From a bacterium (GTDB lineage Bacteria > Patescibacteriota > Microgenomatia > UBA1400 > PJMF01), in NCBI GenBank assembly GCA_017431625.1, contig JAFRKQ010000009.1:11874-75873 (forward strand): a DNA stretch of 64,000 nt. The letters run 5' to 3'. The position numbers and the translations under genes were made by a program. This document shows, piece by piece, positions 16,747-46,431 of the stretch (positions are counted from its first letter, which is position 1; each line of letters begins with the position of its first letter). A model generated the notes under the pieces. It saw only the letters and a list, made by a program, of their open reading frames with translations. It ran no database searches and was not told the origin of the DNA.

Positions 16747-16876
16747 TGAATTCTACTCCGAAACGCGACACCGAGGGGATAATTTAGGCAAATACCTGGG
16801 ATAGCTCACATTATTACAATATAATGATTACTAAATTAGCAATTTGATAATCATTATCAATTTGATACAATCTCAC
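16747..16876. repeat. 130-bp direct repeat, copy 2, containing a Fur box
   Basis: See copy 1; identical over about 130 bp. Confidence 0.9.
16844..16860. promoter_or_regulatory. Fur-box palindrome TTGATAATCATTATCAA inside repeat copy 2
   Basis: Perfect 7-1-7 Fur consensus. Confidence 0.5.
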
Positions 16877-16930
16877 CTTTTTGTTAAACGCGTGTTAAAC
16901 ACTCACATCTGGTTTTTGGTGACAAAATTA
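16874..16930 (+). repeat. cassette-boundary repeat R0 (5'-truncated variant): ttgttaaacgcgtgttaaacactcacatctggtttttggtgacaaaa
   Basis: Shares the tandem GTTAAACGC units and the ATCTGGTTTTTGGTGACAAAA block with R1-R9. Confidence 0.7.
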
Positions 16931-16951
16931 ATAACATTACCAATAAAAAAA

Positions 16952-19937: not shown

Positions 19938-20012
19938 GCCTCAGTGACCTAACTCCCAAGTTCCCACCCAAAACGCAACACTCCGCACCAGTACAAGATA
20001 ACTTAACACAAT

Positions 20013-20103
20013 GTAGACAAAATTTGTACAATTTCACTTTTTTGTTAAACGCATGTTAAACGCATACATCTGGTTTTTAGTGACAAAAATGGTGTTTTTG
20101 TGA
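20013..20103 (+). repeat. cassette-boundary repeat R1
   Basis: gtagacaaaatttgtacaatttcacttttttgttaaacgcatgttaaacgcatacatctggtttttagtgacaaaaatggtgtttttg. Confidence 0.9.
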
Positions 20104-20124: not shown

Positions 20125-21090
20125 CTATTCTTGTCCTAAAAGCTCCACTACCAAGGCCACCATCAAGTCTTTTTCCCGTGGGTTGGATTGAGCGATCAGG
20201 AGTGTTAGTGAGGTGAGAGCGATATTATTGATAATTGGTAGACCATCGCGATACAACATTCCATAAAAATCCAAAAAATAGATCAAAAGTGTGGCCGCAA
20301 TGCGCTTGTTGCCATCAGAAAATGGGTGGTTTTTGATGAGCAGATAAAAAAGATTGGCGGCTTTTTCTTCCAGCGTTGGATAGACATCTTGTCCACCAAA
20401 AGACTGATAAACGTTGCCCAAAATTGACTCCAGACCGCGTTCGCGCTCACTCCCAAAAAGATCGCTGATTTGTTTATATTTAAGACCAGCAATGACACTA
20501 AGACAACTCTTATAGGTAATCATTTTGTCACTCGTGCGCACCCCCTTACCAGAAAAGCGTTGCTCATCATAGCTTTCTAGGGTATCCAAAGCCCGATAAT
20601 AATGATTGATTAGCTGTAAAATTTGCTTGGCATTCTCGCCTTCAATCTCCTGGTCACGATTGGCAATTTCCAGCAATTTAACCGTTTTTTCTAGCATCTC
20701 CAGACGCTTTTGATTGATGGCGACACCTTTGAGCATATAATCTTTGAGCACTTTATTGGCCCAAATGCGAAATTGTGTGCCCTGTGGCGACTTGACGCGA
20801 TAGCCAACAGAAATAATGACATCAAGGTTATAATACTCGACACTATATGTCTTGTTATCAGCGGCAGTTGTTGCAAAAAATGCAACAACTGAGTTTTTAT
20901 TCAACTCGCCTTCGTCAAAAATATTATTAATATGTCGAGAAATAGTGGTTTTATCACGGCCAAAAAGCTGAACCATTTGCGCCTGCGACAGCCACACGGT
21001 TTCGTCCTGAAGATTAACTTCCAGCTTTACCTTTTGATTTTCAAAAATAATGATTTCGTTTTTGTCCTGCATAGGCTTATTATAACACAC
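20125..21090 (-). CDS. Fic/Doc family protein with N-terminal RhuM-like domain
   Basis: C-terminal Fic motif HPFSDGNKRIAATLL (HPFx[DE]GNxR); N-terminus IIIFENQKVKLEVNLQDETVWLSQAQMVQLFGRDKTTISRHINNIF is RhuM-like; start possibly the ATG at 21072. Confidence 0.8.
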   Translation of the reverse strand: MCYNKPMQDKNEIIIFENQKVKLEVNLQDETVWLSQAQMVQLFGRDKTTISRHINNIFDEGELNKNSVVAFFATTAADNKTYSVEYYNLDVIISVGYRVKSPQGTQFRIWANKVLKDYMLKGVAINQKRLEMLEKTVKLLEIANRDQEIEGENAKQILQLINHYYRALDTLESYDEQRFSGKGVRTSDKMITYKSCLSVIAGLKYKQISDLFGSERERGLESILGNVYQSFGGQDVYPTLEEKAANLFYLLIKNHPFSDGNKRIAATLLIYFLDFYGMLYRDGLPIINNIALTSLTLLIAQSNPREKDLMVALVVELLGQE

Positions 21091-21288
21091 ATTTTAGATA
21101 AATTACGAGCCAAAACTACAAGCTACCAAACACAATACCATTTGTCAAATTTTTATCACGTTTGTTATTGTTTTTACCCGGGGAGACCACGAAACACGAT
21201 AGCAAAAAAAACTAAAGACGACAATGTTGTGACACCAGGCTATCACCAAAAGCGAGGTCAAACTTAGCTTCAAGCGGTTCTTTTAAAA

Positions 21289-21378
21289 TGTATACAAAAT
21301 TTGTACAATTTCACTTTTTTGTTAAACGCGTGTTAAACGTGTATATCTGGTTTTTAGTGACAAAAATTTGGTTTTTGT
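21289..21378 (+). repeat. cassette-boundary repeat R2 (in a divergent promoter region)
   Basis: tatacaaaatttgtacaatttcacttttttgttaaacgcgtgttaaacgtgtatatctggtttttagtgacaaaaatttggtttttg. Confidence 0.9.
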
Positions 21379-21447: not shown

Positions 21448-21708
21448 TTGTGTTATAATATAGCGGCAATGATAAAATTGTCAGGAACGCAGTCTATGAG
21501 TTATGACGCTTTAGTACAAGACATTAGCACTCTTCCCAAGGAGTATTTTCCCGAAGTGGCTCATTTTCTTGAGCTGCTTAAATTTAAGGTGATGGTACAA
21601 ACACACCAACAACCATCTTCATTGCGTCAACTGGGTGGCTTTGAAGGCCAAATAAAAATAGCTGATGATTTTGATGACACCCCAACAGGTTTTGAGGACT
21701 ATTTATAA
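21448..21708 (+). CDS. VapB-like antitoxin (DUF2281-like) of a type II TA pair
   Basis: Small ORF ending ...GGFEGQIKIADDFDDTPTGFEDYL whose stop overlaps the vapC start (TAATG); true start probably an internal ATG (MSYDALVQDISTLP...). Confidence 0.55.
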   Translation: MCYNIAAMIKLSGTQSMSYDALVQDISTLPKEYFPEVAHFLELLKFKVMVQTHQQPSSLRQLGGFEGQIKIADDFDDTPTGFEDYL

Positions 21709-22082
21709 TGTATATTATTGACACACATGTGCTATTGTGGTTACTGTCAGATCCAGACAAACTCTCACGCACAGCCAAACAAGTTTTGCAACGTGAACGA
21801 CTTTTTGTTAGTATAGCTTCATTATGGGAGATTGCGATCAAACAAAGTAATGGTAAATTAGAGTTGCCACTGACGCCCCAACAGTTGTCTAACGTTTGTC
21901 TGAGTCGCGATATTCAACTCAAGCAAATCCTACCAAACCATTTATGCCAGCTGCGTGAGCTACCAAAAATTCACAGTGATCCTTTTGACCGTTTGATCAT
22001 TTGTCAAGCCATAGCAGATAAAATCTCAATTGTCACTCATGACACCAAAATTGCTCGTTATAATATTGCGACAGTTTGGTAA
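21708..22082 (+). CDS. vapC: PIN-domain toxin VapC
   Basis: MYIIDTHVLLWLL...SIASLWEIAIK...DPFDRLIICQA...VTHD carries the PIN acidic residues. Confidence 0.85.
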   Translation: MYIIDTHVLLWLLSDPDKLSRTAKQVLQRERLFVSIASLWEIAIKQSNGKLELPLTPQQLSNVCLSRDIQLKQILPNHLCQLRELPKIHSDPFDRLIICQAIADKISIVTHDTKIARYNIATVW

Positions 22083-22095
22083 ACTATTACTTAAT

Positions 22096-22186
22096 GTAGA
22101 CAAAATTTGTACAATTTCACTTTTTTGTTAAACGCGTATTAAACGTGTATATCTGGTTTTTGGTGACAAAAATGGTGTTTTTGTTT
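22096..22186 (+). repeat. cassette-boundary repeat R3
   Basis: gtagacaaaatttgtacaatttcacttttttgttaaacgcgtattaaacgtgtatatctggtttttggtgacaaaaatggtgtttttg. Confidence 0.9.
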
Positions 22187-23667: not shown

Positions 23668-23873
23668 GATCTATCCTTTCCCCAACTTTGCGGCTATTAT
23701 ACCATGGAAAAAGAAGCTTTTGGCAATTTGTTGCGTTGAGATTGGCCTATCTACTATTAATTCCCACGTTTTCAAAGATTTTGTGACTGTAAACACAGAC
23801 TTCATTTGCCCAATCGAAAACAATTGATGATAGCCATGGAAGTAGTCATACTATTGACACGGTTCAATTGTGT

Positions 23874-23965
23874 GTAGACAAAATTTGATCAATTTCACTT
23901 TTTTGTTAAACGCGTGTTAAACGTACACATCTGGTTTTTAGTGACAAAAATGGTGTTTTTGTTTT
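23874..23965 (+). repeat. cassette-boundary repeat R4
   Basis: gtagacaaaatttgatcaatttcacttttttgttaaacgcgtgttaaacgtacacatctggtttttagtgacaaaaatggtgtttttg. Confidence 0.9.
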
Positions 23966-24046
23966 TTATGGTAGCAGTTAATTTTACCAAAACAATTGTC
24001 CTGATCAAATATTTTTGTCACAATGTAAATTCAAAGTTGTGGTATA

Positions 24047-24586: not shown

Positions 24587-24595
24587 CTGTCAACC

Positions 24596-24672
24596 AAAAC
24601 ACGATATCATTTACCGATTCTTTATCGCGTTTGCTATCACTTCTGCCTGGGGAGACCACAAACGCGATACTA
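24596..24672 (+). repeat. partial copy (E-b) of the larger composite repeat element
   Basis: aaaacacgatatcatttaccgattctttatcgcgtttgctatcacttctgcctggggagaccacaaacgcgata matches the 5' half of 29237-29396. Confidence 0.75.
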
Positions 24673-24815
24673 AATAACTAAAGGCTATAGTGTTTTGGCC
24701 GACGCGAAAAAGTTTTTCAATTAGACTTGAAAAGTTGGTGATGATAACGCAATCGCGCTGACTGCTACCGACATATGTACTGTTAAAATCGTGATATTAT
24801 GATATAATCGCTCAT

Positions 24816-26534
24816 ATGACTCAGAATAAAGCGAGAGTAAAAAGACACTGGCACGTACTTGTGTTAGCTTTAATTATCGCGCTGGCAAGTTTTTTCCGAC
24901 TCTGGCATTTAAACCAGCTACCTTATGCCCTTCACGATGACGAAGTCTGGAATGCCTATCTGGGCAAATTTATTATTTTAAATCATCAAGATGTCAACGG
25001 TCAGAAGTGGCCGTGGCTTTATTCAGATAAATTTGGCGATTATCCGCCAGTACTACCCATGTATTTATCTGGTCTCACCGCGATTTTTTTTGGCGACAAT
25101 GCCCTAGCTGTGCGTTTGCCGATTGCCATTTGTGGCATTATTAATGTAATCACCGTTTATTTTTTGGCGAAGTTTTTATTTGCTGATACTCGAGCGGCAC
25201 TGGTAGCCACTTTGTTTATGGCTATTTGCCCTTGGCACGTTATTCTCTCGCGCGCTACAGCAGAAAATATCGTTGCTACCAGTGTATTTTCACTAGGTAT
25301 ATTAGTGCTCTTTACAGCTTTGGAAAAGCAAAAAGTTTCTGGCAAACTATTGGTGTCATTATTATTGCTCCTGACTACTTATTTGCTTTATCCGAGTTAT
25401 CGGGTGTTAATACCTTTATTTTTATTGCCGACATTTTTACTTACACCGCCAAAGTCATTAATTCGTCAATGTATGGTGACGGCTACTATTGTTGCTTTTG
25501 GCTTGACATTCATAATCGGCCACACTGATTGGGGCAAAGGACGCTATGATCAAATTTCTATCTGGACACATGGTGGTGAAATTGCCGGCAAGTCGCTTAA
25601 TTATTCACTTGCCCTCGGTCCAGGTCGAGTTTTGGAAGCGAGAATTTTTAATAATAAATATGTTTTAGTAGCAAGAGAATTTTTGCGACAGTATAGCACC
25701 TATTTTTCTGCGCAGTTTCTTGCTGGCGAAGGGTTTATGGAGCCGAAGCGTTATCATCTGATTGAGCATGGAGTCGCTTATTGGTCATTGATTTTGGTAA
25801 TAATTCTTTTTGTGTTGGTGCAAATTGTCAGACCCTACACACTACCACAATTGTCAGCAACTTTCAAACGTCAAAGGTGGCGGTATTTTTTGCTATTGTT
25901 GTGGTTTTTATTGATAGCGCCATTGCCAGCCGCACTGACACTCGAGGAAGTTCCCAATATTCATCGGACTCTAGGAATGGTTGTGGTTTGGTCTTTACTT
26001 TTTGGTTGGTTAACATGTCGGCTATTGGCAGCCAAGCTCACAAGACACTGGTTGATGATAGCCGCTGTTGGTCTCGGACTAGTATTTTGTAGCGAGGCGA
26101 TTTATTTTTGGCACACTTACACCACATTGGACTATGAGAGTAATTTTATTTATCGCGATGATGCCAAAAAACTTATCAGCGAGTGGTTACTGGCCCAGCA
26201 TGACGAGAAAATACCAATTCTCATTCCTCAAGCTGGCAATTTAATTCTTCATTACTTGTTTTTTGGTGGCAATTACGACCCATCGTTGGTGGGCCAATTT
26301 GAAGATGGCTTGAGCATTGAGGTCTTCCATCATTTACATCCAGTTTTTGATCCTTGCAAGCAAGCCCAAAAAATTCTCAAATTACAACCAAACGAAAAAA
26401 TATTGGTCGTGAGTGAGCAAGACAATTGTGAAGGTTTGGTTTTGCGTGACAAAATTGTCAGACACAACTTGACCGATGCTTATTATATTTGGGAAGCAAG
26501 TCGCGAGGGAATATTGCCAGTCAACGAACTTTAG
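24816..26534 (+). CDS. GT-C fold glycosyltransferase (ArnT/PMT family, GT39/GT83-like) polytopic membrane protein
   Basis: More than 10 predicted TM helices; conserved DE motif in the first extracytoplasmic loop (LHDDEVWNAYLGKF). Confidence 0.65.
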   Translation: MTQNKARVKRHWHVLVLALIIALASFFRLWHLNQLPYALHDDEVWNAYLGKFIILNHQDVNGQKWPWLYSDKFGDYPPVLPMYLSGLTAIFFGDNALAVRLPIAICGIINVITVYFLAKFLFADTRAALVATLFMAICPWHVILSRATAENIVATSVFSLGILVLFTALEKQKVSGKLLVSLLLLLTTYLLYPSYRVLIPLFLLPTFLLTPPKSLIRQCMVTATIVAFGLTFIIGHTDWGKGRYDQISIWTHGGEIAGKSLNYSLALGPGRVLEARIFNNKYVLVAREFLRQYSTYFSAQFLAGEGFMEPKRYHLIEHGVAYWSLILVIILFVLVQIVRPYTLPQLSATFKRQRWRYFLLLLWFLLIAPLPAALTLEEVPNIHRTLGMVVVWSLLFGWLTCRLLAAKLTRHWLMIAAVGLGLVFCSEAIYFWHTYTTLDYESNFIYRDDAKKLISEWLLAQHDEKIPILIPQAGNLILHYLFFGGNYDPSLVGQFEDGLSIEVFHHLHPVFDPCKQAQKILKLQPNEKILVVSEQDNCEGLVLRDKIVRHNLTDAYYIWEASREGILPVNEL

Positions 26535-26537: not shown

Positions 26538-26664
26538 ATCGTGTTTACCACTCTGCCTGAAATACCTGCGAAACGCGATATGAAATGGCCAAAGACTATC
26601 ATGTTTGGGCTAGCGTGGGCCGCCAAAAGTGAGGATAAATTAATTTCAACGTGTTTTTGATAAT
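26538..26664 (+). repeat. partial copy (E-c) of the larger composite repeat element, contiguous with R5
   Basis: ctctgcctgaaatacctgcgaaacgcgatatgaaatggccaaagactatcatgtttgggctagcgtgggccgccaaaagtgaggataaat...tttgataat nearly identical to the 3' half of 29237-29396. Confidence 0.8.
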
Positions 26665-26756
26665 ATAGACAAAATTTGATCAATTTCACTTTTTTGTTAA
26701 ACGCATGTTAAACGTATACATCTGGTTTTTAGTGACAGAAATGGGGTTTTTGTTTT
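26665..26756 (+). repeat. cassette-boundary repeat R5
   Basis: atagacaaaatttgatcaatttcacttttttgttaaacgcatgttaaacgtatacatctggtttttagtgacagaaatggggtttttg. Confidence 0.9.
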
Positions 26757-26840
26757 TTATGGTAACGACTAATTTTACCACAACAATTGGCCTGATTAAA
26801 AATTTTTGTCAGTTGACACATAAAGCAGTGTCGCAATATT

Positions 26841-26871
26841 CTTTGCCCGCGCTCAATCGAGCGCGGGCAAA
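26841..26871. promoter_or_regulatory. perfect 14-bp-arm palindrome ctttgcccgcgctc-aatc-gagcgcgggcaaag in the conserved 3' module of the Fibrobacter-paralogous-domain gene family
   Basis: Recurs at 31541-31571 and 63129-63159, always about 40 bp 3' of a family member's stop; no U-tract, so not a classic terminator. Confidence 0.6.
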
Positions 26872-26909
26872 GACGAAACGAAATCAGGAAAAGTATTAAG
26901 ACTACAAAA

Positions 26910-28865
26910 CTAAAGTTTGGTAATACGAGCAAAGCCATGACCACTTTTAGCACAATCTATTTGGGGATCACTGCTAACGCAGGTATTACTAATTGTATAT
27001 GTTGATTCTTGTTCGGAACTGTCGCAAGCGTAGCAGCTCATATGTTTAGCCGACAAATTCACATTAGCAATATAGCCAGAACCGCCGCCACCGCCATAAT
27101 CAGTACTATTTGTGCTTGCACTACCACCATAATAGCCACCACCACCAGCTCCGGCATTTTTATTATTTCCGCCCTTACCGAATGAACCTGCGTAGCTGCC
27201 AGTAGCGCCACCGGCTGTTTGGCTACCTCCAAAACCAGTATTGCTCGATGATGTGCCACCAATGTAGCCACCACCACTTCCAGCGATATCAGCGCTATCA
27301 TTGGCTGCACCGCCACCCGCAACAATTAAAATGCGATTATCAGTAGCGTGGCTAGACAGTGTTGACAAAACACCCGAATCTAATGCGATGTGCGTCGCAC
27401 CTCCGCCGCCAAACTGTCCAGAACCTCCGCCATTATAGCCACCAGTGCTACCGTTTGCCTTGCCACCAACATTAATATGCAAAACAGTCCCTTGGGTTAA
27501 ATTAATTTTCCCAACTGCGTAGCCGCCATAGCCAGCTTGACCGATACCAGCGCCAACTACTCCAGAAGAAGCATCGGTGTAGCCTTCAGCACCCCAAACT
27601 TCCAGTAAATATATACCGTTGCTAGCAATAGTTAAAGTTTGTTCGCTGCCAGTATAATTATACTCATAAATATTATTGATGTTCACACAAGTGTCAGTGG
27701 AAGGGTTGTATTGATTGCTTCCGGTGCAAGTAGCGATACATTTACCATAAGTACTTGAATACTCATAATTTGTTTTACAGTCACAGGTCATCTTATTAGC
27801 ATTAAATGTGCCATTGTCACCACAAACGGCGATACAGCTGTGATATTGTTCTGACCACTCGTAGCCGTTGGCACAATATTCATGAACGCAACGTACACTC
27901 GCCCCATTGGCTTTATTGAGCTTAGTAATACCAAAACGCACATTGTTATGATAAATACTATTGCTAATAGTTTCACTAACATTAGTAGCTGTCCAATAGT
28001 AATTATATATTGGTTCTTGAGTCAAACCGCCGGTAACTCCTGCTACCCCAGCAGGAATCACTGCATGCCACGAACCACTTTTGGTCCAAAACGTCAAGTC
28101 ACTAGTGATTACACTTAAAGAAACATAATCATCTTTGCTGGGCAAATACCAACCATCAGGACAGATCCCTTTTCGTGGAATACTCGGTTGATAATTCTGT
28201 CCATAATGTGCATTATTATCCTGAACCGCTGCTTGATAACTGTAAAAATTACCTTGTAATGTCCCAGTACCTTCCAAACCATCATCATCGACTGTATCTT
28301 TAGCGGCACGACAATCGCCGTATAAACCATTGGCAATTCTATTACTTACACTGATTGCATTGGCCGCAGTTGTAATACACGTTTCATCCGCATTATATCC
28401 ATAGCCACAATAAAATATTTTATCACAACCAGAATGATATTTAAGATTTGTTGTCATCCAGCATTTGCCATCAGCAAATTTACGGACTTCGTAAGTTTTA
28501 CCATCTCTCTCATCCATAAGACATGGACCACTAGTATAAGCAGTTCCAGTTGGTGTTGTTAAACTTTCGCAATCACCAATTGACCAACGTTGCATTGTTG
28601 TTTGTGGATTTTTACAGCCATATTCTTTAATTGTCATGCAATTATTAGTACTAGAAGCAAATAGCTGTCCGCTTGGACACAGGCTGGTAGCCAAATATTT
28701 ATTGACCCCCACCCTAACAAATTGAATACCACCCACTTGTACCACTTTGCCTACAGCAACATCTTTAAGTTTCATCGTTTGATTGCCCGAAGCAGCGAGC
28801 GTCAATTGCCTTGATAACATGAGAAAAATTGCCGCCAAAAAGACTCGCCCAAGTACTCTGGACAT
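26910..28865 (-). CDS. secreted protein with Fibrobacter-succinogenes-major-paralogous-like domain and a Gly-rich C-terminal region
   Basis: Signal peptide MSRVLGRVFLAAIFLMLSRQLTLAA; DERDGKTYEVRKFADGKCWMTTNLKY, ICPDGWYLPS and NGASVRCV match the Fibrobacter paralogous-domain (TIGR02145-like) pattern; C-terminus GGGGYYGGSASTNSTDYGGGGGSGY. Confidence 0.65.
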   Translation of the reverse strand: MSRVLGRVFLAAIFLMLSRQLTLAASGNQTMKLKDVAVGKVVQVGGIQFVRVGVNKYLATSLCPSGQLFASSTNNCMTIKEYGCKNPQTTMQRWSIGDCESLTTPTGTAYTSGPCLMDERDGKTYEVRKFADGKCWMTTNLKYHSGCDKIFYCGYGYNADETCITTAANAISVSNRIANGLYGDCRAAKDTVDDDGLEGTGTLQGNFYSYQAAVQDNNAHYGQNYQPSIPRKGICPDGWYLPSKDDYVSLSVITSDLTFWTKSGSWHAVIPAGVAGVTGGLTQEPIYNYYWTATNVSETISNSIYHNNVRFGITKLNKANGASVRCVHEYCANGYEWSEQYHSCIAVCGDNGTFNANKMTCDCKTNYEYSSTYGKCIATCTGSNQYNPSTDTCVNINNIYEYNYTGSEQTLTIASNGIYLLEVWGAEGYTDASSGVVGAGIGQAGYGGYAVGKINLTQGTVLHINVGGKANGSTGGYNGGGSGQFGGGGATHIALDSGVLSTLSSHATDNRILIVAGGGAANDSADIAGSGGGYIGGTSSSNTGFGGSQTAGGATGSYAGSFGKGGNNKNAGAGGGGYYGGSASTNSTDYGGGGGSGYIANVNLSAKHMSCYACDSSEQESTYTISNTCVSSDPQIDCAKSGHGFARITKL

Positions 28866-29236: not shown

Positions 29237-29396
29237 CAAAACACGATATCATTTACCGATTCTTTATCGCGTTTGCTACTACTTCTGCCTGAAATACTCA
29301 CGAAACGCGATATCAAATGACCAAAGACTATCGTGTTTGGGCTAGCGTGGGCCGCCAAAAGTGAGGATAAATAAATTTCAACCTGTTTTTGATAAT
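29237..29396 (+). repeat. most complete copy (E-d) of a ~160-bp composite element with nested inverted repeats, contiguous with R6
   Basis: Outer inverted repeat aaacacgata/tatcgtgttt and inner atcgcgttt/aaacgcgat; partial copies at 21150-21205, 24596-24672 and 26538-26664. Confidence 0.8.
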
Positions 29397-29486
29397 GTAG
29401 ACAAAATTTGTACAATTTCACTTTTTTGTTAAACGCGTGTTAAACGCGTGTTAAACGCGTATATCTGGTTTTTGGTGACAAAAATG
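29397..29486 (+). repeat. cassette-boundary repeat R6 (three GTGTTAAACGC units)
   Basis: gtagacaaaatttgtacaatttcacttttttgttaaacgcgtgttaaacgcgtgttaaacgcgtatatctggtttttggtgacaaaaatg. Confidence 0.9.
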
Positions 29487-29596
29487 TATGTGCCTCGTTC
29501 AAAGTGTTGACGTTTCGCCAACAAATCTTTATAATGCGGATCATTAGCCTCATCGGGGTTGTTCGCAGCCATCACGATCATCTGTTCTCCATCGCA

Positions 29597-29638
29597 GTAG
29601 AGAACAAACTAGCATTTGTTCCCCAGTAGACTAGAGAA
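29597..29638. repeat. 40-bp direct repeat with internal palindrome gaacaaa-ctagca-tttgttc (copy at the 3' end of the ATPase gene)
   Basis: tagagaacaaactagcatttgttccccagtagactagagaag; second copy at 31122-31170. Confidence 0.8.
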
Positions 29639-31085
29639 GTAAAAACATTGACAGCGGCAAATTGACAAACTGTCCACCCGGATCCAACTGCAGTGGCGAC
29701 TGACTAACTGTTATCCCTAGGCTATACTTGAGATTGTGCCGCGCGATGCTAGCCGCTACTTGTTCACTGCCCTTAGTACCGCTACCCACCTCCAGCACCA
29801 AGGCTTGCTGCTTTTCGTGAATATCCACGATGAAGTCAGCACAGTTTTTGGCGGCATCATAGGTGAGAGCATATGAATAACCTCGCCGTGTCAGTAATTT
29901 TGTCAGATACATCGCCATCGTATCTTCACAAACTTTGGCGCGTAGATCGGCTGGTGTCAACGTCGTCCCCAATAAATTCAGATACATCGAGCGAAATGCC
30001 GGCGCAGCAAAGAGATATTTTGACGCCTTGCGTACCTGCACTCCCACATTGCCATACGGTGCCAACCGGTAGATCAAACCAGATAATTCCAGTGTATCCA
30101 GCATTTGTTGCAAGGTGGTGGGACTTAAGCGTAAATCATGGGCAACGTTATCAACGGCTGTAACATCGTTATTGGTAAGCAGATAAATCAATCGGGCAAA
30201 CATATTCAGTGTTGCCGGACTAAAAGTCTGCAGTTGGGCAATATCTTTACCGATGATCGTATCTACGGTCTTTTTTAGCTGATCATAAGCAACTCCAAGA
30301 TTGTGTAACCGCAGCAATGAAGGCAAGGTACCTATTTCCAAATATTTGTTGATCGTAATTTCTTGAGGAAAAGTGGCATAAAAACGACGTACCGGGCCTA
30401 TACAACGCTTAAAATAGTACATCGCCTCCTTCCCAGTGTTGCTACCCAGCAAACCCTCACGCAGCTGCGCTGTCACCTCCAGTGGCAGTGTTTGGCGATG
30501 GATAAGCCGGACGTACTCACGGAAAGATAAAGGATAGATCGTTTCAAAAATCGCCCGCCGACTAATATCTGCATTCGTTTGTAACTGGAGAGCTGCCGAG
30601 CCAGTGGCAGCCACAAACACCCGTCGTGACCGATCATATAAGTTTTTGATAGTTATCGCCCAGTCTGGGTCATATTGCACTTCATCCAAAAAAATGTACA
30701 CTGGCGGCCCGTTTTGGGTAAAACTTTCGCCCAACAGAGTTTCGTAAGCGGCTAACACTTGTCCTAGCGTCACTCCCAATTGGCGTGTCACCTCGTCCAC
30801 CGATAGATAGATTTTGTGCAAAGGAGCAGCTTTGATCTGGTCGAGCAATTGCATAAGCAGTGTCGTTTTGCCCAAGCCCCGCAAGCCACTGATCACCAAC
30901 CACCTCCAGGCAGCATTACCGGCTTCAAAAGCATCCAAGTGCTGTGCCAGGCGGCCATAGACATCGCGGCGTGGCAAGGGTGCGCCAGCATCGTCAGTTG
31001 TGTAATTAACACATCTAGCCGTCAGTTCCATCAGTTGACGTTGTAAATAAGCAGTGAGTTGATTTTGTGTCTCTTGTGTGATCAT
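29631..31085 (-). CDS. AAA+ ATPase (AAA_14/DUF4143-type ATP-binding protein)
   Basis: Walker A VISGLRGLGKTTLL, Walker B IFLDEVQ; visibly more GC-rich than neighbouring cassettes. Confidence 0.75.
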   Translation of the reverse strand: MITQETQNQLTAYLQRQLMELTARCVNYTTDDAGAPLPRRDVYGRLAQHLDAFEAGNAAWRWLVISGLRGLGKTTLLMQLLDQIKAAPLHKIYLSVDEVTRQLGVTLGQVLAAYETLLGESFTQNGPPVYIFLDEVQYDPDWAITIKNLYDRSRRVFVAATGSAALQLQTNADISRRAIFETIYPLSFREYVRLIHRQTLPLEVTAQLREGLLGSNTGKEAMYYFKRCIGPVRRFYATFPQEITINKYLEIGTLPSLLRLHNLGVAYDQLKKTVDTIIGKDIAQLQTFSPATLNMFARLIYLLTNNDVTAVDNVAHDLRLSPTTLQQMLDTLELSGLIYRLAPYGNVGVQVRKASKYLFAAPAFRSMYLNLLGTTLTPADLRAKVCEDTMAMYLTKLLTRRGYSYALTYDAAKNCADFIVDIHEKQQALVLEVGSGTKGSEQVAASIARHNLKYSLGITVSQSPLQLDPGGQFVNLPLSMFLLL

Positions 31086-31121
31086 ACCTTAGATTATACC
31101 ACATTTTGTTCCCTAATACAA

Positions 31122-31170
31122 TAGAGAACAAACTAGCATTTGTTCCACAGTATACTAGAGAACAAAACCA
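31122..31170. repeat. direct repeat with palindrome gaacaaactagcatttgttc (copy upstream of the ATPase gene; extra half-sites ttgttcc/agagaacaaa nearby)
   Basis: atagagaacaaactagcatttgttccacagtatactagagaacaaaacc. Confidence 0.8.
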
Positions 31171-31363
31171 TACGATGGTGCTAATTGCCCTCTGGTGTCA
31201 CCTGCTTGTACATACGATCAGCGCGCAAAATTCTCACTAAAAATGAGACTGGAAACATAACGAGTCTCCTTATACAATAGTATTGTTACAAAGTACTAGA
31301 GAAAAGCCTAAGTTCCAACCTAAAACGCGACACTCAACACTAACATAAGATTATTTAAACAGT

Positions 31364-31455
31364 GTAGACAAAATTTGTACAATTTCACTTTTTTGTTAAA
31401 CGCGTGTTAAACGTGTAACTATGGTTTTTGGTGACAAAAATGTGGTTTTTGTAAT
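31364..31455 (+). repeat. cassette-boundary repeat R7
   Basis: gtagacaaaatttgtacaatttcacttttttgttaaacgcgtgttaaacgtgtaactatggtttttggtgacaaaaatgtggtttttg. Confidence 0.9.
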
Positions 31456-31540
31456 TTATGGCAGTGGTTAATTTTACCAAAAACAATTGGCCTCATTAAA
31501 TACTTTTGTTAGTTGACACACACGACAGTGTCGCGATATT

Positions 31541-31571
31541 CTTTGCCCGCGCTCCAAGAGCGCGGGCAAAG
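31541..31571. promoter_or_regulatory. perfect palindrome ctttgcccgcgctc-caa-gagcgcgggcaaag (second copy)
   Basis: See 26841-26871. Confidence 0.6.
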
Positions 31572-31603
31572 ATGAAACGAAATAAGAAAAGTATTAAGAC
31601 TGC

Positions 31604-31700
31604 AAACTTAAATGCCTAAATAAACAGACAGCTGGGTGATGCGGGCGGCACCATGACCAGTGTGACCCAATTCTTCCTCGCCACTCGGAGCAAGAAAAAT
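31604..31700 (-). pseudogene. decayed 3'-terminal remnant of a glycine-rich paralogous-domain family gene
   Basis: taaatgcctaaataaacagacagctgggtgatgcgggcggcaccatgaccagtgtgacc aligns with the 3' end of the 63195-63992 gene (taaatgcccagataaacagacagctgagtaatccgggcggcaccatttccggtatgacc); no ORF remains. Confidence 0.5.
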
Positions 31701-31903
31701 TTGATCACCCGCAATGGTCTCGGCATTAGTCAAATAATAATCACTGCCCGCTATCCAATTGACTGTGTCGGCATCTTAGCCATTATTTTTTCCAGTAATC
31801 ATAGTTGTCTTTGGTGTAGCCGCCAATGACGCTGACTTCTCTTATTTTCCTTTCGCATTAAGATTGACTCGCATGCTATGGTGTAAACAAGATTTGCAAG
31901 GTC

Positions 31904-32746: not shown

Positions 32747-33104
32747 AAACCATTGCTAATTATAGCACATGTTCAAATGGTTTAAAAGTTGCCAGAATAA
32801 TTTCTAGCAAATATTCTAAGATGTGATAAATATTGCTCATTTAGGTGGTTTCATCACTTGCCAGTCAATAAACTTTTCTCCTGTATTTGTACTGCAAATT
32901 TTTTTCTACCTGAAAAATTAATTTCTTATGCAATGGTCATGCAAAATTACTCCCACGTGTGGCAAAGCGTATCGACTCATGCGAATAGTAGTCAACCAGT
33001 TTGTCTATTTACAAATCATAGTAAAGCGCAATGTCTTTTTGCCTTTTTGACCTGCCCCATTTTTACAGCTTGCTATCATGAACTGCGCCTGTTTTGCATT
33101 TTAT

Positions 33105-33172
33105 CATTTTTGTTAAACGCGTGTTAAACGTACACATCTGGTTTTTGGTGACAAAAATGGGATTTTTGTTTT
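33105..33172 (+). repeat. cassette-boundary repeat R8 (5'-truncated)
   Basis: tttttgttaaacgcgtgttaaacgtacacatctggtttttggtgacaaaaatgggatttttg. Confidence 0.85.
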
Positions 33173-33405
33173 TTAGCATCTAGTAAGTTTTTGTGATATT
33201 TGGTGAAACTAATAAAGAAATTGCGAGAATGTATCGCAAAAAAGATTAAGACAAATCATTCCTGCAAAAATTGCGACAATAAAATATAATTTGATATGTT
33301 ACAATACCGACATTTCGCAGTCGCGTTGGCCCTGGGTTAAGTCTGCCGGGGAGATCTCACATCAAGACAACAGATAGTTGTCATAAAATAAAAAGAAAGA
33401 ACAAT

Positions 33406-34434
33406 ATGCAAAATATAGCACTTGAGCACATCCATACTAAAAATATCGTTGACGACGCCCGGCAAATCATTCAAACAGCTCGGGCTAATGCCACTAGAAG
33501 CATTGACTTTAATCGCGTGCAAATGTATTGGTGTTTAGGTCGGCGAATTTTTGAGGAAGAACAACAAGGCAAAGACCGGGCAAATTACGGCACATATCTA
33601 ATAAAAAAGCTTGCTAATTCCTTAGAAAAGGAGTACGGTAGCGGTTTTTCCGAACGGCAATTAAAATTTTGTCGTCAGTTTTACCGACTTTACCCAATTG
33701 GGAACGCAGTGCGTTCCCAATTGAATTGGACTCAATATCGTTTGTTAATCCAAATTTCTGACCCCGACAAACGTGAGTATTACGAACTCGAGTCGGTCAA
33801 CAATTCCTGGACAGCTCGAGAAACAGAAAGACAAATTAACAGTCAACTTTACGAGCGACTTCTTCTGAGCAATGATAAAGAATCTGTTTTGGCGATCGCC
33901 AGAAAAGAACGCCTTCCTGATAGACCGCAAGAGGTGATTAAAGACCCAATGGTGTTAGAGTTTTTAGGACTTGATCGTCAAGCCTCTTACTACGAAAAAG
34001 ATTTAGAAAGCGCGATTATTTCGCATCTAACTGATTTTTTGTTAGAAATGGGCAAAGGTTTTTGTTTTGTAGCGCGCCAAAAAAGAATCATCATAGAGGA
34101 TGACGAGTTTTTCATCGATTTGGTTTTGTACAATCGATTACTTAGATGTTTTGTCATTGTGGAACTCAAAACTGGAAAACTTACTCACCAAGATCTCGGA
34201 CAGCTACAAATGTATGTCAACTACTATGACCGCCAAGAAAAACTACCACAAGAAAATGACACTATTGGTGTCTTACTCGGGACAAGCAAAAATGACACCG
34301 CAGTCAAAATGACTTTACCAAAAGACAATCAAACAATTATGACTGGTGAATACCAGCTTTATTTGCCAAGTACTGAGCAATTGGCGAAAGCAGTCGAAGA
34401 AGTCAAGCAATTAGCGCAGTTCAGTTTTATGTAG
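33406..34434 (+). CDS. YhcG-like protein (DUF1016 N-terminal domain plus PD-(D/E)XK nuclease-like C-terminal domain), copy 1
   Basis: GKGFCFVARQKRIIIEDDEFFIDLVLYNRLLRCFVIVELKTGKLTHQDLGQLQMYVNYYD is the D...E.K core typical of the YhcG family; stop codon supplied by R9 (atgTAGacaaaa). Confidence 0.75.
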   Translation: MQNIALEHIHTKNIVDDARQIIQTARANATRSIDFNRVQMYWCLGRRIFEEEQQGKDRANYGTYLIKKLANSLEKEYGSGFSERQLKFCRQFYRLYPIGNAVRSQLNWTQYRLLIQISDPDKREYYELESVNNSWTARETERQINSQLYERLLLSNDKESVLAIARKERLPDRPQEVIKDPMVLEFLGLDRQASYYEKDLESAIISHLTDFLLEMGKGFCFVARQKRIIIEDDEFFIDLVLYNRLLRCFVIVELKTGKLTHQDLGQLQMYVNYYDRQEKLPQENDTIGVLLGTSKNDTAVKMTLPKDNQTIMTGEYQLYLPSTEQLAKAVEEVKQLAQFSFM

Positions 34435-34520
34435 ACAAAATTTGATCAATTTCACTTTTTTGTTAAACGCGTGTTAAACGTACACATCTGGTTTTTGGTG
34501 ACAAAAATTGGATTTTTGTA
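34431..34520 (+). repeat. cassette-boundary repeat R9
   Basis: gtagacaaaatttgatcaatttcacttttttgttaaacgcgtgttaaacgtacacatctggtttttggtgacaaaaattggatttttg. Confidence 0.9.
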
Positions 34521-36086: not shown

Positions 36087-36501
36087 TGTTGCGTTCCCTT
36101 TATTTTCAATTCTCAGTCTACAGCTGTTGGGGTAAACTCTGACAGGAAGTCCACAACCCAACTGCTTGAGGTTAATTATAGCATGATTGGGGAGTTTTTG
36201 AGGAAGAGTATTTAAAGCTACTATGGGCAAATATTTGAGTTAAGTAAAAAAACGTGGGGTTTTACATTATTTTTGGCGGTATATACGTAAAATTGGCATT
36301 ATTTTGCACTTTTTGAGTGCTAAATCTCGATATTTACCAGTGTTTAAACAAAAAAGTGCAGTTTTATCTGTGTGAGATTTTATTTAACTCACCTTTATTG
36401 AACAATTTTTGTGTTCAAGTGTGAGACATGTTAGTTTACCCTACGAAAGAAATATCGTGAATCTGCATGCAAATTTGACACAATTATAGTCATGATATAT
36501 A

Positions 36502-37764: not shown

Positions 37765-37970
37765 AAAGCCGTTGCAATTAGAATTGATTGACTGGACAAA
37801 TAACATTGGCTATCCAAATAATCTGTTTAGGTCTCAGGTCTGGCGATAAGTGAGAGGCACGAAACAGGTGTGGATTATAATACACAAAAACCCTCCCCCA
37901 CTTTGTCAGTGAGAGAGGGCGAAACGAAATAAGAAAAGTAGTAAGACTGCAAAGCTAATGATTGTCAGTG

Positions 37971-38400
37971 TCAGGGTGTATTTCCTAGGAGGCACCGAAC
38001 TGAGAAGCCACCCCACTTCGCACATGCACCCGTGTAGCTGAAATGATCACCACGAGCGTCCATGATGTAAGCGCCTGAATTGGAAGTTCTTTCATTAGTA
38101 GAAGACCACCATTGTGAATGTTTGTCCTGATAATACACCATGCTGGAATTTGCACCACCGCCGGTACCAGCGAGAGTACTCTTACCAGTGGCATTCCAAG
38201 GACTGGGTGCCTCACTAACGTTATCATCACCAGTGCCACCAGTTTTAGTCACACGGAAAAATTTTTTTTGAGAGTTAACTGCGTCAGCAAGTCGATACCA
38301 TTCACTAGCATTAGAGTCCGTGGGCACATGCCAGCCCAGTGGACAGATATCGTGAGTGGCCAGTCTTTCTTGTAAGCTAGCACTATCACCAGCATTGGTA
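37971..38400 (-). pseudogene. 5'-truncated fragment of a Fibrobacter-paralogous-domain protein gene
   Basis: Encodes ...CPLGWHVPTDSNASEWYRL...WGGFSVRCLLGN, the C-terminal half of the domain, but has an upstream in-frame stop and no signal peptide; followed 3' by the conserved cgaaacgaaataagaaaagtagtaagactgcaaa module. Confidence 0.5.
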
Positions 38401-39990: not shown

Positions 39991-40177
39991 TGAATGACAA
40001 CTTTTTCAAGATCTTTCAAGATTAAGTTCATAGTCAAGCTTGGCGCCAAGTTCTCAATTTAATCAACAGCCAATTGTGTTTTTAATTACTGAGTATACAC
40101 ACGTTATAGCCACGTCGTAGCCACTCATCGCGATTTACAATTATTTTTGGTAATTTCTCCACAAGTTGTGGAGAAAA

Positions 40178-40320
40178 CTGGCGGGAGATCCGAGCCCAGT
40201 TACTAGAGGTTGATTATAACATGATTAAGAAGTTTTTACAGCGGGAAAGTGTGTGGAAGTAATTATCAAATGATTAATTACTATAGGTATTGACAAAAAA
40301 TTTAATTTGTGATAAAGTGG
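40178..40320 (+). repeat. upstream module copy 1 (3' 80 bp of the conserved small ORF plus TTGACA promoter), identical over 70 bp to copy 2
   Basis: tggcgggagatccgagcccagttactagaggttgattataacatgattaagaagtttttacagcgggaaa shared with 42116-42186. Confidence 0.8.
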
Positions 40321-40324
40321 ATAT

Positions 40325-42027: not shown

Positions 42028-42259
42028 CAAAAACCTTTGCTCGAACCCGACAAAAACCTTGATCAATCAGATAATAATTCGTCAAATTCTGGAGAAAATC
42101 CTCTCAGGGGTGATCTCTGGCGGGAGATCCGAGCCCAGTTACTAGAGGTTGATTATAACATGATTAAGAAGTTTTTACAGCGGGAAAATATGTGACAATA
42201 ATTGTCAAATAATTTATTATTATAGGTATTGACAAGAAAGTCATAGTGTGGTATAAATA
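42028..42259 (+). repeat. upstream module copy 2: conserved small ORF (42001-42195) plus TTGACA...TGgTATAAAT promoter
   Basis: Aligns with 43608-43848; encoded peptide ...NPLRGDLWREIRAQLLEVDYNMIKKFLQRENM versus ...NPLRGDFWLKVRTQLLEVDYSMIREFLKREML. Confidence 0.75.
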
Positions 42260-43430
42260 ATGTCTATTAAATATAAGAAAGACAAAATGACCAAACAATT
42301 AAAATCGCTGACGATTTTGGACAAAGATTACATTAGTTGGATCGATGAATTATCTTCTCGTTATCGCCAAAGTCAAGTAAAAGCAGCAGTTAAGGTCAAC
42401 ACTGAAATGCTGCGGTTTTACTATGATTTGGGGAAAGACATTGTTACTCTCAAAGCTGAAAGCAAATGGGGCAGCGGTTTCATGAAAAATTTGAGCCACG
42501 ACCTGAAACTTAAAAATCCAAGTGCTGCATGTTTTTCTTTGGTTAATTTACACTATATGAAGAATTTTTACTTGCTATATCACTCATTAATAGATTTTTC
42601 TTCCAAAAATGATGAAGAGCTTGTGAATACTCTAATTGTTCAGCAACTTGCTGAACAATTAGATCAGGCAGACTTTTTCCAGCAAGTTGCTGAAAAAATT
42701 AAAAGTGACATCTTTTCGACCCCTTGGGGTCATCATATGATTTTGATTGATAAATTTAAATCAGAACCAAATAAAGCTCTGTTTTTTGTCCATCAGACGG
42801 TAGACAATGGTTGGAGCCGTGACATGCTACTTAATTTTATTGATACCGATCTATACGAAAGGCAAGGGAAAGCGCTGACGAATTTCAAGAGAACCCTGCC
42901 AGACGTCAATAGTGATTTGGCACAAGAAATCACCAAAGATCCATATAATTTTGCTTTTACTGGTATTACCAATAAATACAATGAGCGTAAACTGAAAGAT
43001 ACTTTATTAACCAATATCGCTCAGTTTTTGATTGAACTTGGCACTGGTTTTGCCTATGTGGGCAAAGAGTATCGGCTGCAAATTGGTGACACTGAAAAGT
43101 TTGTTGATTTGCTTTTTTACAATCTGAGTCTATCTTGTTATGTTGTGATTGAAGTTAAGATTGGCAAATTTGATTTTGCCGATTTAGGACAACTTGGTGG
43201 TTACGTAGTTTCATGTAATAGGTCGTGATAACCCTACCATTGGCCTTTTGATTTGTAAACAAAAAGATAATATAGTGGCTCAATATGCACTCGAGTCTAG
43301 TAGCCAGCCTTTAGGGATTTCTGAATACGAATTACAGAAATTGTATCCAGAAAAAGTTGAAGGAACGGTACCGACAATTGAGGAGATAGAAAAGAAATTA
43401 AAAGAAAATAACAATGATTACGATAAATGA
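42260..43430 (+). pseudogene. YhcG-like (DUF1016/PD-(D/E)XK) gene, copy 2, frameshifted near 43215
   Basis: Frame 1 ends ...FADLGQLGGYVVSCNRS*; the +1 frame continues GRDNPTIGLLICKQKDNIVAQYAL..., matching the intact copy 43849-44952. Confidence 0.6.
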
Positions 43431-43607: not shown

Positions 43608-43848
43608 CCCAAACCCTTGCTCAAACCCACTCAAAACCTTGATCAATCAGATAATAATTCGTCAAATTCTGAAGAAAATCCTCTAAGGGGTGACTTCTGG
43701 TTGAAAGTCCGCACCCAGTTACTTGAGGTTGATTATAGCATGATTAGGGAGTTTTTGAAACGGGAAATGTTGTAACAACATATATCAAATAATAATTCGT
43801 TATAAGTATTGACAATAAAGTCATAGTGTGGTATAAATAATTCTAATT
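43608..43848 (+). repeat. upstream module copy 3: small ORF 43563-43775 plus promoter
   Basis: See 42028-42259. Confidence 0.75.
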
Positions 43849-46395: not shown

Positions 46396-46431
46396 AAAAA
46401 CAGAAAATATTATAGGATATTTACAATTTTT

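Follow-up and report, generated by a model that had tools for sequence, protein, structure and literature searches.

The window, meaning the whole stretch of 64,000 nucleotides analysed here, comes from an uncultured rumen bacterium whose nearest relatives with a name are Saccharibacteria, and carries an intact gene, a partial gene at its edge and two truncated remnants of one family of secreted proteins. Each of these is followed by a short conserved 3' untranslated region (UTR) and then by a hairpin, which in three cases is a perfect palindrome (P). The features are, from left to right:

26664-26839, plus strand: array repeat r26695 with its extension (95-nt core at 26664-26753), abutting palindrome A, with a promoter-like TTGACA-N16/18-AATATT/TATTCT at 26813-26842 facing the palindrome
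26840-26873: palindrome P, copy A (14-bp-arm version 26841-26872), loop AATC on the plus strand, -29.9 kcal/mol as RNA
26873-26909, minus strand: 3' UTR copy A, 37 nt, subtype 1, TTTTGTAGTCTTAATACTTTTCCTGATTTCGTTTCGT
26910-28865, minus strand: paralog A, intact secreted protein of 651 aa with the family N-terminus, FISUMP, Cys-rich repeats and glycine-rich ALK_LTK_GRD, ending ...GHGFARITKL and stop
31363-31539, plus strand: array repeat r31394 (core 31363-31452), with an extension as at copy A
31540-31572: palindrome P, copy B (14-bp-arm version 31541-31571), 15-bp arms, loop CAA
31572-31607, minus strand: 3' UTR copy B, 36 nt, subtype 1
31611-31754, minus strand: remnant B, about 50 codons of the family C-terminus ending ...GHTGHGAARITQLSVYLGI and stop, without N-terminus or central region
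37890-37920, minus strand: T-type hairpin, copy D, GCCCTCTCTCACT-GACAA-AGTGGGGGAGGGT followed by TTTTGTGTAT, by sequence a canonical intrinsic terminator, with G-U pairs that form on the gene strand only
37921-37957, minus strand: 3' UTR copy D, 37 nt, subtype 1, beginning 14 nt past the actual stop codon of the fragment
37971-38372, minus strand: fragment D, the C-terminal half of FISUMP (118-aa ORF at 37971-38327, similarity reaching 38372)
62412-63110, plus strand: RibD_C gene, convergent with paralog C
63128-63160: palindrome P, copy C (14-bp-arm version 63129-63159), 18 nt past the stop of the convergent RibD_C gene
63160-63194, minus strand: 3' UTR copy C, 35 nt, subtype 2
63195-64000, minus strand: paralog C (P0145, IJJ08_01250, 396 aa), C-terminal 267 residues in the window, full gene at L018 8222-9412

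Paralog A scores well above the cutoffs of both profiles that match it (FISUMP TIGR02145 (TIGR02145 / PF09603), 59.0 bits vs 41.65; PF12810, 104.3 bits vs 24.5), which bears out the intact secreted FISUMP/glycine-rich protein proposed by an earlier, sequence-only reading of this DNA. The partial member that it placed at the window edge is equally real, since the C-terminus of paralog C within the window reaches 115 bits with PF12810 (cutoff 24.5), and so are its two decayed fragments, which are truncated remnants. Remnant B is 49% identical to the C-terminus of this edge copy. Fragment D reaches only 23.6 bits with FISUMP (TIGR02145 cutoff 41.65), at profile positions 71-174 of 176, and has no signal peptide and no family N-terminus upstream. 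At least four intact paralogs are present in this metagenome-assembled genome, of which about 76 kb of DNA were inspected; paralog E lies on another contig, paralog F is IJJ08_00860, and three homologues (P0145, P0152, P0201) carry a PF12810 annotation. No exact match was found for the proteins of paralogs A and F or of an AAA_14 gene, a sequence search of the PDB gave nothing, and the literature search brought up nothing relevant to this FISUMP/glycine-rich family.

The paralogs are conserved at their ends, that is in about 66 signal-peptide-like N-terminal residues and in the C-terminus, and are very variable in the centre. The conserved coding ends share 66-78% nucleotide identity, and where the amino acid is the same the codons are identical in only 48-57% of cases. 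Because synonymous sites in the conserved ends are this heavily diverged, with about half of the synonymous codons differing, the paralogs are old. Recent gene conversion as the source of the conserved coding ends was rejected on the same synonymous divergence. Common ancestry was likewise rejected for the pairing of an AAA_14 gene with a family gene at loci A and E, as the ATPases are only 27% identical. Like the Mycoplasma vlp/vsp-type families, this family combines a conserved 5' end (ribosome-binding site, signal peptide and ~66 residues) and 3' end with a divergent centre, and several paralogs with truncated copies. In contrast to them, neither repeats for phase variation nor an invertible promoter nor a donor array of silent cassettes was seen, its paralogs are dispersed and old, and its conserved non-coding part is the 3' UTR. 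The candidate phyla radiation, to which this lineage belongs, has been reported to be rich in diversity-generating retroelements (DGRs), and a GC-rich hairpin immediately behind the C-terminal coding end of a gene for a surface protein recalls DGR targets (variable region, IMH, GC-rich hairpin). However, the C-terminus of the family is conserved rather than variable, no template repeat was found, and the 9 mismatches between B and C in the last 60 nt (1 at A in B, 2 at A in C) are not adenine-specific. Neither the window ORFs scanned nor the gene tables of contigs L013, L015 and L018 contain a reverse transcriptase, which speaks against the nearby DGR that had been considered for this locus.

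Palindrome P has the form CTTTGCCCGCGCTC-N3/4-GAGCGCGGGCAAAG, with exactly three copies in the window and no match in 100 shuffles; the matches reported earlier at 26841, 31541 and 63129 are exact. Its arms are perfect, as had been described, but 15 bp long (TCTTTGCCCGCGCTC) instead of 14, with no bulges; its GC-rich stem had been set against an AT-rich genome, which holds only moderately, since the GC content across the window is 35-52%. Copies A, B and C each follow the 3' end of a gene or remnant of the one family on the minus strand, and the stem starts 34-36 nt past the stop codon on the transcribed strand. As RNA, P folds at -28.6 to -29.9 kcal/mol with 15 pairs and is the most stable 3' hairpin of the window. 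Across the three copies all 30 arm positions agree (100% identity), and the adjacent UTRs differ by 14-24%; by our own rough estimate, the chance of unchanged arms is below 0.01 per copy pair. This identity exceeds the need for base pairing and suggests that either the sequence as such is constrained or conversion has been very recent. Among its three copies, P itself shows no compensatory variation. Its loop varies in length and sequence (GATT vs TTG on the gene strand) between arms that are perfect throughout, and such a loop of 3 or 4 nt fits a hairpin rather than a double-stranded operator with fixed spacing. A small plus-strand ORF spanning the palindrome was rejected, as an ATG is present in copy B only. 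Rfam searches of the whole window (gathering thresholds) and of 16.5-47 kb (E<=5) returned only tRNAs and noise, with nothing at the 3' module or at the 95-nt array repeat described below.

The UTR between stop codon and hairpin is 34-37 nt long, pyrimidine-rich and 76-91% identical across all five known 3' ends of the family (A-E), which exceeds the identity of the coding ends. In all five, the hairpin begins 0-1 nt after ...ATTTCGTTTC(G/A)N. A profile of the UTR (nhmmer) found only five distinct copies in the DNA examined, each 3' of a family member, and the UTR pattern had 0 matches in viral contigs. Coding of the UTR by read-through was rejected, since copy A has a 1-nt indel that shifts the frame. 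The module shared by the 3' ends is common to the family, as proposed earlier, but is not a uniform ~90 bp; it consists of the UTR (34-37 nt), the hairpin (31-32 nt) and a further ~6-40 nt. All four combinations of UTR subtype and hairpin type are present, and therefore the 3' ends of the family have recombined. Recombination-driven replacement of the genes, as the sequence-only reading had it, agrees with these exchanges and with a difference in gene content between strains, but since the paralogs are old it cannot be called a rapid replacement.

The UTR would be a cis element specific to the family and kept by purifying selection, with a role that is probably post-transcriptional. The conservation of the 3' module might instead be that of a plain flank, in which P has no specific function and was carried along in duplication or conversion of the family. 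Its copies are confined to one family, and A and B share about 175 nt more beyond the palindrome. This extra sequence, however, belongs to the array repeat and also occurs at 23873-24019 with no family gene. Moreover, with about half of the synonymous sites diverged a neutral flank should be scrambled, and yet the UTRs are 76-91% and the arms 100% identical; we consider a passive flank quite improbable.

The hairpins at the other two 3' ends show what kind of element fills this position. At the fourth site (37915-37960), which had been taken for a degenerate palindrome, only the 37-nt tail at 37921-37957 is shared, and an unrelated hairpin of 13 pairs follows at 37890-37920 with UUUUGUGU (TTTTTG), which ranks first among the terminator-like sites at 20-40 kb. 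At E, on the other contig, a hairpin of 11 pairs with UUUUUGUGUUU occupies the same slot after the UTR. In both, the stem is followed by TTTTTGTGT (U-tract tail UUUUUGUGU). Some of the differences between the stems of D and E are compensatory (C-G to U-A), and others are compatible with G-U pairing, which is possible on the gene strand only; therefore the slot is that of an RNA hairpin. As the same slot holds canonical terminators in D and E, P occupies the position of a terminator. The copies of P differ among themselves in this respect. Copies A and B have a tail without a U-tract on either strand (AATATTGCG; gene-strand tails AUAUUGCG in A and AUAUCGCG in B) and were not flagged by a simple terminator scan, so that classical intrinsic termination is doubtful there. 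The lack of a U-tract that had been noted for P thus holds at 26841 and 31541, but not at 63129: copy C, with the gene-strand tail ATTTTCCTTT (AUUUUCCUUU), is the top terminator-like match of that scan between 58 and 64 kb, and no other hairpin lies in the 84 nt that separate the two convergent stop codons.

We regard it as probable, if far from certain, that P is a 3'-end mRNA hairpin of an old secreted-protein family, serving as a terminator and/or a block to 3' exonucleases and possibly working in both directions between convergent genes. The hairpin slot would be functionally equivalent whichever hairpin occupies it, and the identical copies of P may have spread by gene conversion or recombination among the 3' ends of the paralogs. 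Convergent genes flank the 3' ends A, C and D. P resembles intrinsic and bidirectional terminators in being a GC-rich stem-loop after a short 3' UTR, in the terminator slot of D and E, and at A and C it separates two convergent genes; it folds equally on both strands because it has Watson-Crick pairs only. Bidirectional terminators are ordered A-tract, stem, U-tract; in P the A/T-rich base of the stem has the opposite arrangement, with U-rich sequence 5' and A-rich sequence 3' whichever strand is read. A further difference from intrinsic terminators is that no U-tract follows the stem in A and B.

A point against the hairpin reading is the promoter-like TTGACA-N16/18 element that faces the palindrome in A and B. 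It could mean that P folds into a hairpin at the 5' end of an antisense RNA, transcribed on the plus strand from TTGACA-N16/18-AATATT/TATTCT in A and B, complementary to the UTR and C-terminus and acting on all mRNAs of the family, with remnant B as a small-RNA gene. The promoter-like site, with a score of 10/12, is conserved (26813-26842 and 31513-31542) and ends at the first bases of the palindrome, the UTR is conserved in all paralogs, and remnant B keeps just the base-pairing portion. Copy C, on the other hand, has no such promoter, with the RibD_C stop codon 18 nt away, no terminator-like site follows downstream on the plus strand, and this DNA is rich in promoter-like matches (92 observed vs 59 expected). 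An antisense RNA therefore seems very unlikely to us.

P could also be compared with the REP/BIME elements of enterobacteria, which stabilise mRNA at the 3' ends of genes and are mobilised by RAYT transposases. P is likewise extragenic, GC-rich and located at gene 3' ends, where it could shield mRNA from 3' exonucleases, and its copies are identical with differing flanks. REPs, however, are imperfect, occur in hundreds of copies and are not linked to a gene family, whereas the three copies of P are perfect and invariably stand behind the UTR of one family. A small mobile or convertible palindromic element of this REP- or MITE-like kind, inserted behind the UTR and ahead of the original terminator and later passed on among the paralogs, would explain why identical copies are joined to two UTR subtypes, and a second small hairpin, GACAC...GTGTC, which follows P in copies A and B, could be what remains of the older terminator. 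Against this, P has no more than three copies, and all of them occupy one and the same junction in the family. P is absent elsewhere in the 64-kb window and in the other loci of the organism (a match on L018 is the same copy C), so that the link to the family proposed earlier holds for 3/3 window copies. Exact P has 0 matches in GTDB species-representative genomes, JGI metagenome contigs and IMG/VR viral contigs. No target-site duplication was seen, and the window ORFs scanned include no Pfam match to a RAYT (IS200/IS605-like Y1) transposase. We hold such an element to be rather improbable.

Copies A and B lie within a larger structure. Between 16.8 and 46.4 kb the window contains 11 co-oriented copies of a 95-nt direct repeat, one per gene-block boundary. 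The repeats carry 11-bp TGTTAAACGCG iterons, alongside which a TTGTACAA/TTGATCAA dyad is named. The genes of this island are unrelated and run in both orientations; they include toxin-antitoxin, CAT acetyltransferase, Fic and others, and a 340-aa ORF adjoining the last repeat is a class II aminoacyl-tRNA-synthetase-like protein. The array-repeat pattern has 0 matches in GTDB genomes and viral contigs, a blastn search against plasmid and phage collections gave no match, and 8 single matches in JGI metagenomes (~33 nt) were rejected as chance. An attC-like or RNA structure of the repeat was rejected as well (fold z-scores -0.02 to -1.15, no covariation). In a related strain (contig L013) the gene content of the region differs by an indel, the only one seen at strain level, whose breakpoints lie in the 95-nt repeat and not in the palindrome, although the junction may be an assembly jump across the repeat. 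Breakpoints at the palindrome, as suggested earlier, are thus not what this indel shows. Fragments B and D may be leftovers of rearrangements in this variable low-GC island of ~17-46 kb.

This bears on a further alternative, that P acts on the DNA itself, as a site of recombination or of protein binding at which a recombinase or structure-specific nuclease, perhaps through a cruciform, exchanges 3' ends or genes. The identical arms between diverged flanks would fit, and so would remnant B, which retains exactly a 3' end and the palindrome; the four UTR/hairpin combinations require exchange at or near the UTR/hairpin junction, and the island codes for three YhcG PD-(D/E)XK nucleases, each of whose genes has an internal perfect palindrome with a 3-nt loop. 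However, no recombinase, integrase or transposase is found among the window ORFs scanned, the indel breaks elsewhere, the paralogs are old, the variable loop disfavours a dimeric operator, and ordinary terminators fill the same slot in D and E. We consider a DNA-level site unlikely, and the earlier preference for a recombinase- or protein-binding palindrome over a terminator is not upheld.

The repeat-bounded island is more unusual than the palindrome. Like integron attC sites, P is a palindrome that follows accessory genes of a variable array; unlike them, it has no R''/R' core sites (RYYYAAC/GTTRRRY) and no extrahelical bases. The island also differs from integron cassettes, in that its genes have both orientations and its recurring boundary element is an unstructured 95-nt direct repeat. 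No integron integrase (intI) or tyrosine recombinase was found among the window ORFs scanned, and the literature search found nothing relevant on integron-like arrays in Patescibacteria. A bolder proposal is that UTR and P form a 'handle' to swap or co-regulate the 3' ends of surface-protein genes in an episymbiotic bacterium of the candidate phyla radiation, within an undescribed cassette-like island (11 repeats and a trans-acting recombinase) that captures genes as integrons do but without folded attC-type sites; we think this unlikely.

If the hairpin reading is right, the palindrome belongs to an ordinary class of element, a hairpin at the 3' end of an mRNA. A bacterial paralog family with a UTR conserved above its coding ends suggests that surface proteins are controlled post-transcriptionally in this uncultured lineage of episymbionts, for which there is hardly any knowledge of gene regulation. 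The repeat-delimited island, together with the one strain-level difference, offers a concrete system for accessory-gene exchange in small, Saccharibacteria-like genomes.

A pattern scan of the window for the GC-rich palindrome P, CTTTGCCCGCGCTC-N3/4-GAGCGCGGGCAAAG, gives exact matches at 26841, 31541 and 63129 and none in 100 shuffles. The arms measure 15 bp once a flanking T/A pair is counted, and, apart from three inside YhcG genes, no other perfect palindrome in the window reaches 13 bp per arm. None of the public DNA collections scanned contains P. The family of secreted FISUMP/glycine-rich surface proteins is encoded on the minus strand throughout, so that each P copy lies 3' of a family gene or remnant; on this point the sequence-only reading was essentially correct, and its count of one intact member, one partial copy at the edge and two decayed fragments is matched by domain and alignment evidence.

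Family members in the window
26910-28865, minus strand: paralog A, 651 aa, with a signal-peptide-like N-terminus, FISUMP (TIGR02145, 59 bits) and glycine-rich ALK_LTK_GRD (PF12810, 104 bits) domains
31611-31754, minus strand: remnant B, about 50 codons of a C-type C-terminus
37971-38372, minus strand: fragment D, FISUMP domain, C-terminal half
63195 onward, minus strand: edge copy C, PF12810 C-terminus

No further remnants of the family N-terminus occur elsewhere in the window. By exact protein matches the window falls on an 86.7-kb contig of a metagenome-assembled genome (locus tags IJJ08_) whose samples (XIEF21-1_..._METAG) probably belong to a survey of the ruminant gut. The nearest named homologues belong to Candidatus Saccharibacteria, and the same genome holds at least four intact paralogs, namely A, C (P0145, 396 aa), E (P0152, 378 aa, on a different contig) and F (P0201, 398 aa). 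In the alignment of the paralogs the ribosome-binding site is conserved, the N-terminal ~66 residues (MSRVFGRVFLAAIFL...AASGN.TMKLKDV...) are 64-74% identical, identity in the centre falls to 3-30%, and the C-terminal ~60 residues are again conserved (84% for C vs E); outside these ends BLAST detects no similarity between A and C. Where the amino acid in the conserved ends is the same, only 48-57% of codons are identical, with a nucleotide identity of 66-78%, which argues that the paralogs are old and that their ends are kept by selection on the protein, not by recent conversion.

Five 3' ends are known, the fifth having been recovered behind E in L015. All share a pyrimidine-rich UTR of 34-37 nt, (G)TTTGCAGTCTTAATACTTTTCTTATTTCGTTTCG, starting at the stop codon, with a pairwise identity of 76-91% (91% for C vs E), above that of the neighbouring coding DNA. 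A profile search of all DNA searched (window and fetched comparison loci) finds these five distinct copies only. At the divergence seen in synonymous sites, about half, a neutral flank would be expected to have become unrecognisable, and the UTR is therefore taken to be a functional cis element; the simplest guess is a post-transcriptional role.

In every known 3' end a hairpin directly follows the UTR: P in A, B and C, and a canonical terminator-type hairpin in D and E. The D hairpin, GCCCTCTCTCACT-GACAA-AGTGGGGGAGGGT followed by TTTTGTGTAT, ranks first among terminator-like sites from 20 to 40 kb; that of E is CTTCCCTCACT-CGAAAAAA-AGTGAGGGAAG followed by TTTTTGTGTTT. The two are homologous and differ by compensatory changes (C-G to U-A) and by G-U-compatible ones whose pairing is confined to the gene strand, a pattern that is the signature of an RNA terminator stem. 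P thus occupies a terminator slot, which speaks against the proposal that it is a protein- or recombinase-binding site rather than a terminator. No 3' hairpin in the window is stronger than P, whose copies in A, B and C fold at -28.6 to -29.9 kcal/mol. The loop of A differs from that of B and C in length and sequence while the arms stay perfect, which suits a hairpin and not a double-stranded operator of fixed half-site spacing. A, C and D are placed between convergent genes, P is the sole hairpin in the 84-nt gap between the RibD_C stop and the C stop, and its Watson-Crick-only stem folds equally well on both strands, as needed by a bidirectional element.

Two observations count against a simple terminator. 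One is the lack of a U-tract in A and B; the absence claimed for P in general does not extend to C, which has the tail ATTTTCCTTT and, in keeping with the terminator reading, ranks first among terminator-like sites from 58 to 64 kb. The other is that the 30 arm positions carry zero substitutions among the P copies beside UTRs that differ by 14-24%, so that either the sequence as such is constrained or P has spread recently. REP elements in E. coli act as an exonuclease block at 3' ends; unlike REP-like elements, P has only three copies in the window and the fetched loci, all tied to the family. On balance we lean towards P as the 3'-end hairpin of the family mRNAs, where it would act as a terminator and/or exonuclease block. 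The best reading of the sequence comparison is that either of two hairpins, P being one, can fill the 3'-end slot behind a strongly conserved UTR specific to the family.

The UTR occurs in two subtypes, GTCTTA(A/C)TACTTTTC in A, B and D and GTCTG(G/A)TAAGTTTC in C and E, and all four combinations of subtype and hairpin type are seen. Because the differences are blocks of several nucleotides, at least one exchange between UTR and hairpin is required, and the 3' ends of the family have thus recombined. A diversity-generating retroelement, for which a nearby reverse transcriptase had been suggested as a check, is not borne out: none is present among the window ORFs scanned or in the gene tables of L013 (a related-strain contig) and L018 (carrying full-length C), the protein C-terminus is here the conserved part, and B vs C mismatches are not adenine-specific. 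P was also rejected as an integron attC, being perfect, without core sites and with no integrase nearby.

Larger-scale turnover appears to use another substrate, a direct repeat with a ~95-nt core, GTAGACAAAATTTGTACAATTTCACTTTTTTGTTAAACGCGTGTTAAACGT.TACATCTGGTTTTTGGTGACAAAAATGG.GTTTTTGT, present in 11 copies (16.85-46.41 kb) that separate blocks of one or two genes, one copy per boundary.

Cores of the 95-nt repeat (window copies all plus strand)
16851-16940
20012-20101
21289-21378
22095-22184
23873-23962
26664-26753
29396-29496
31363-31452
33098-33174
34430-34519
46319-46408, adjoining tRNA-His
L013, approx. 7075-7170, minus strand
L013, approx. 8844-8940, minus strand

The two outermost copies are the most divergent. 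Each core holds two copies (three at 29438) of an 11-bp iteron, TGTTAAACGCG, and an 8-bp dyad, TTGTACAA or TTGATCAA, which suggest protein binding. Neither strand of the repeat folds significantly (z-scores -0.02 to -1.15) and covariation is absent, so it was rejected as attC-like. No window ORF scanned encodes a recombinase. Rfam returns nothing at the P module or at the repeat, which also lacks a match in the public DNA collections scanned and is apparently undescribed.

The blocks carry unrelated accessory functions: Fic/RhuM; PIN toxin; alpha/beta hydrolase with a cyclophilin-like protein; histidine phosphatase with a GT39 glycosyltransferase; paralog A; AAA_14 ATPase; membrane protein; YhcG nuclease; and DNA alkylation repair protein. 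The following three are content typical of integron cassettes or genomic islands.

20125-21090, minus strand: RhuM/Fic gene
21448-22082, plus strand: DUF2281/PIN toxin-antitoxin pair
45491-46141, minus strand: chloramphenicol-acetyltransferase-family gene (PF00302, E=1e-41), in the long stretch preceding the last repeat copy

The GC content of this island is 35-44%, vs 46-52% in the flanks. The palindromes of A and B abut an extended form of the repeat, and the same extension occurs at 23873-24019 without a family gene. A YhcG 3' fragment (23789-23872) and a solo hybrid of the repeats around the glycosyltransferase gene (29237-29340) lie beside copies of the repeat, and the decay of B and D fits the pattern of other remnants in this variable, lower-GC region.

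L013, a 25.9-kb JGI contig, is 96.6% identical to 36200-34432 and 98% to 23702-22093, and joins both segments via a single repeat copy. It lacks window positions 23.87-34.43 kb, five gene blocks including A, B and both palindromes, with breakpoints inside the 95-nt repeat, and past its next repeat has different genes. This junction rests on one contig, and a mis-join across the repeat is possible in principle; against this, L013 has its own unique 160-nt spacer at one side. Colinearity with the window, at 99-100% identity, is seen in other contigs of the same population. Gene replacement driven by recombination is therefore upheld in part: 3' ends are shuffled, but the sole between-strain difference in gene content seen has its breakpoints at the separate 95-nt repeat, not at P. 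L011 (1-66), a short contig of a different sample, joins the left edge of the repeat at 23875 directly to GC-rich sequence that the window lacks (T|TAGACAAAATTTG); this is an assembly chimera or else an alternative junction at the edge of the repeat.

Several other repeats accompany these elements. The three YhcG/DUF1016 paralogs each contain a perfect palindrome within the CDS (33695-33723, 42631-42663, 44213-44241), with 13-15 bp arms and a 3-nt loop, at the same protein position and with different sequences. Among distant homologues from viral contigs 14/31 have one, with arms of 9-14 bp (L030-L035, L037-L039, L043, L048, L050, L053 and L054, at about 690-815), and further copies lie at or beyond gene ends (L036 453-477, 1504-1530 and 1748-1768; L039 1568-1598), pointing to selection for a hairpin, at the DNA or RNA level, inside the gene. 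On either side of the AAA_14/DUF4143 ATPase gene (29631-31085) lies one of a pair of 61-nt direct repeats (29583-29643, 31107-31167), and both include the inverted repeat GTTCTC...GAGAAC; L015 likewise has an AAA_14 gene, unrelated at 27% identity, between direct repeats TTTTCAGTTGACTGAAAAAATGTCCTCAA (approx. 440-470 and 1707-1735), directly upstream of E as the window ATPase is of A. The GT39 gene (24816-26534) is flanked by ~100-nt direct repeats (24595-24700, 26540-26640) containing a 10-bp-stem hairpin, ATCGCGTTTG...CAAACGCGAT; a solo hybrid at 29237-29340 resembles the upstream repeat in its left part and the downstream one in its right, and may be an empty site or a deletion product; a related site lies at 21126-21180. 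A second intergenic family (...CCCAGTTACT.GAGGTTGATTATAACATGATTAAGGAGTTTTT...) occurs at 36156-36201, 40092-40322, 42031-42261, 43611-43841 and L013 8970-9101, upstream of three consecutive plus-strand genes (40325, 42260, 43849); the element at 36156 overlaps a frameshifted minus-strand gene (274 aa) at its 5' end, near the end of window/L013 similarity. A ~60-nt block conserved at 12938-12999, 51586-51647, 59637-59698 and 62297-62358 matches a consensus promoter on the minus strand (TTGACA-N17-TATAAT, upstream TG); a promoter scan gives 12/12 for the copies at 59688-59660 and 62348-62320.

As a hairpin, P belongs to an already known class of element; the parts worth pursuing are the repeat-bounded island and the conserved UTR.
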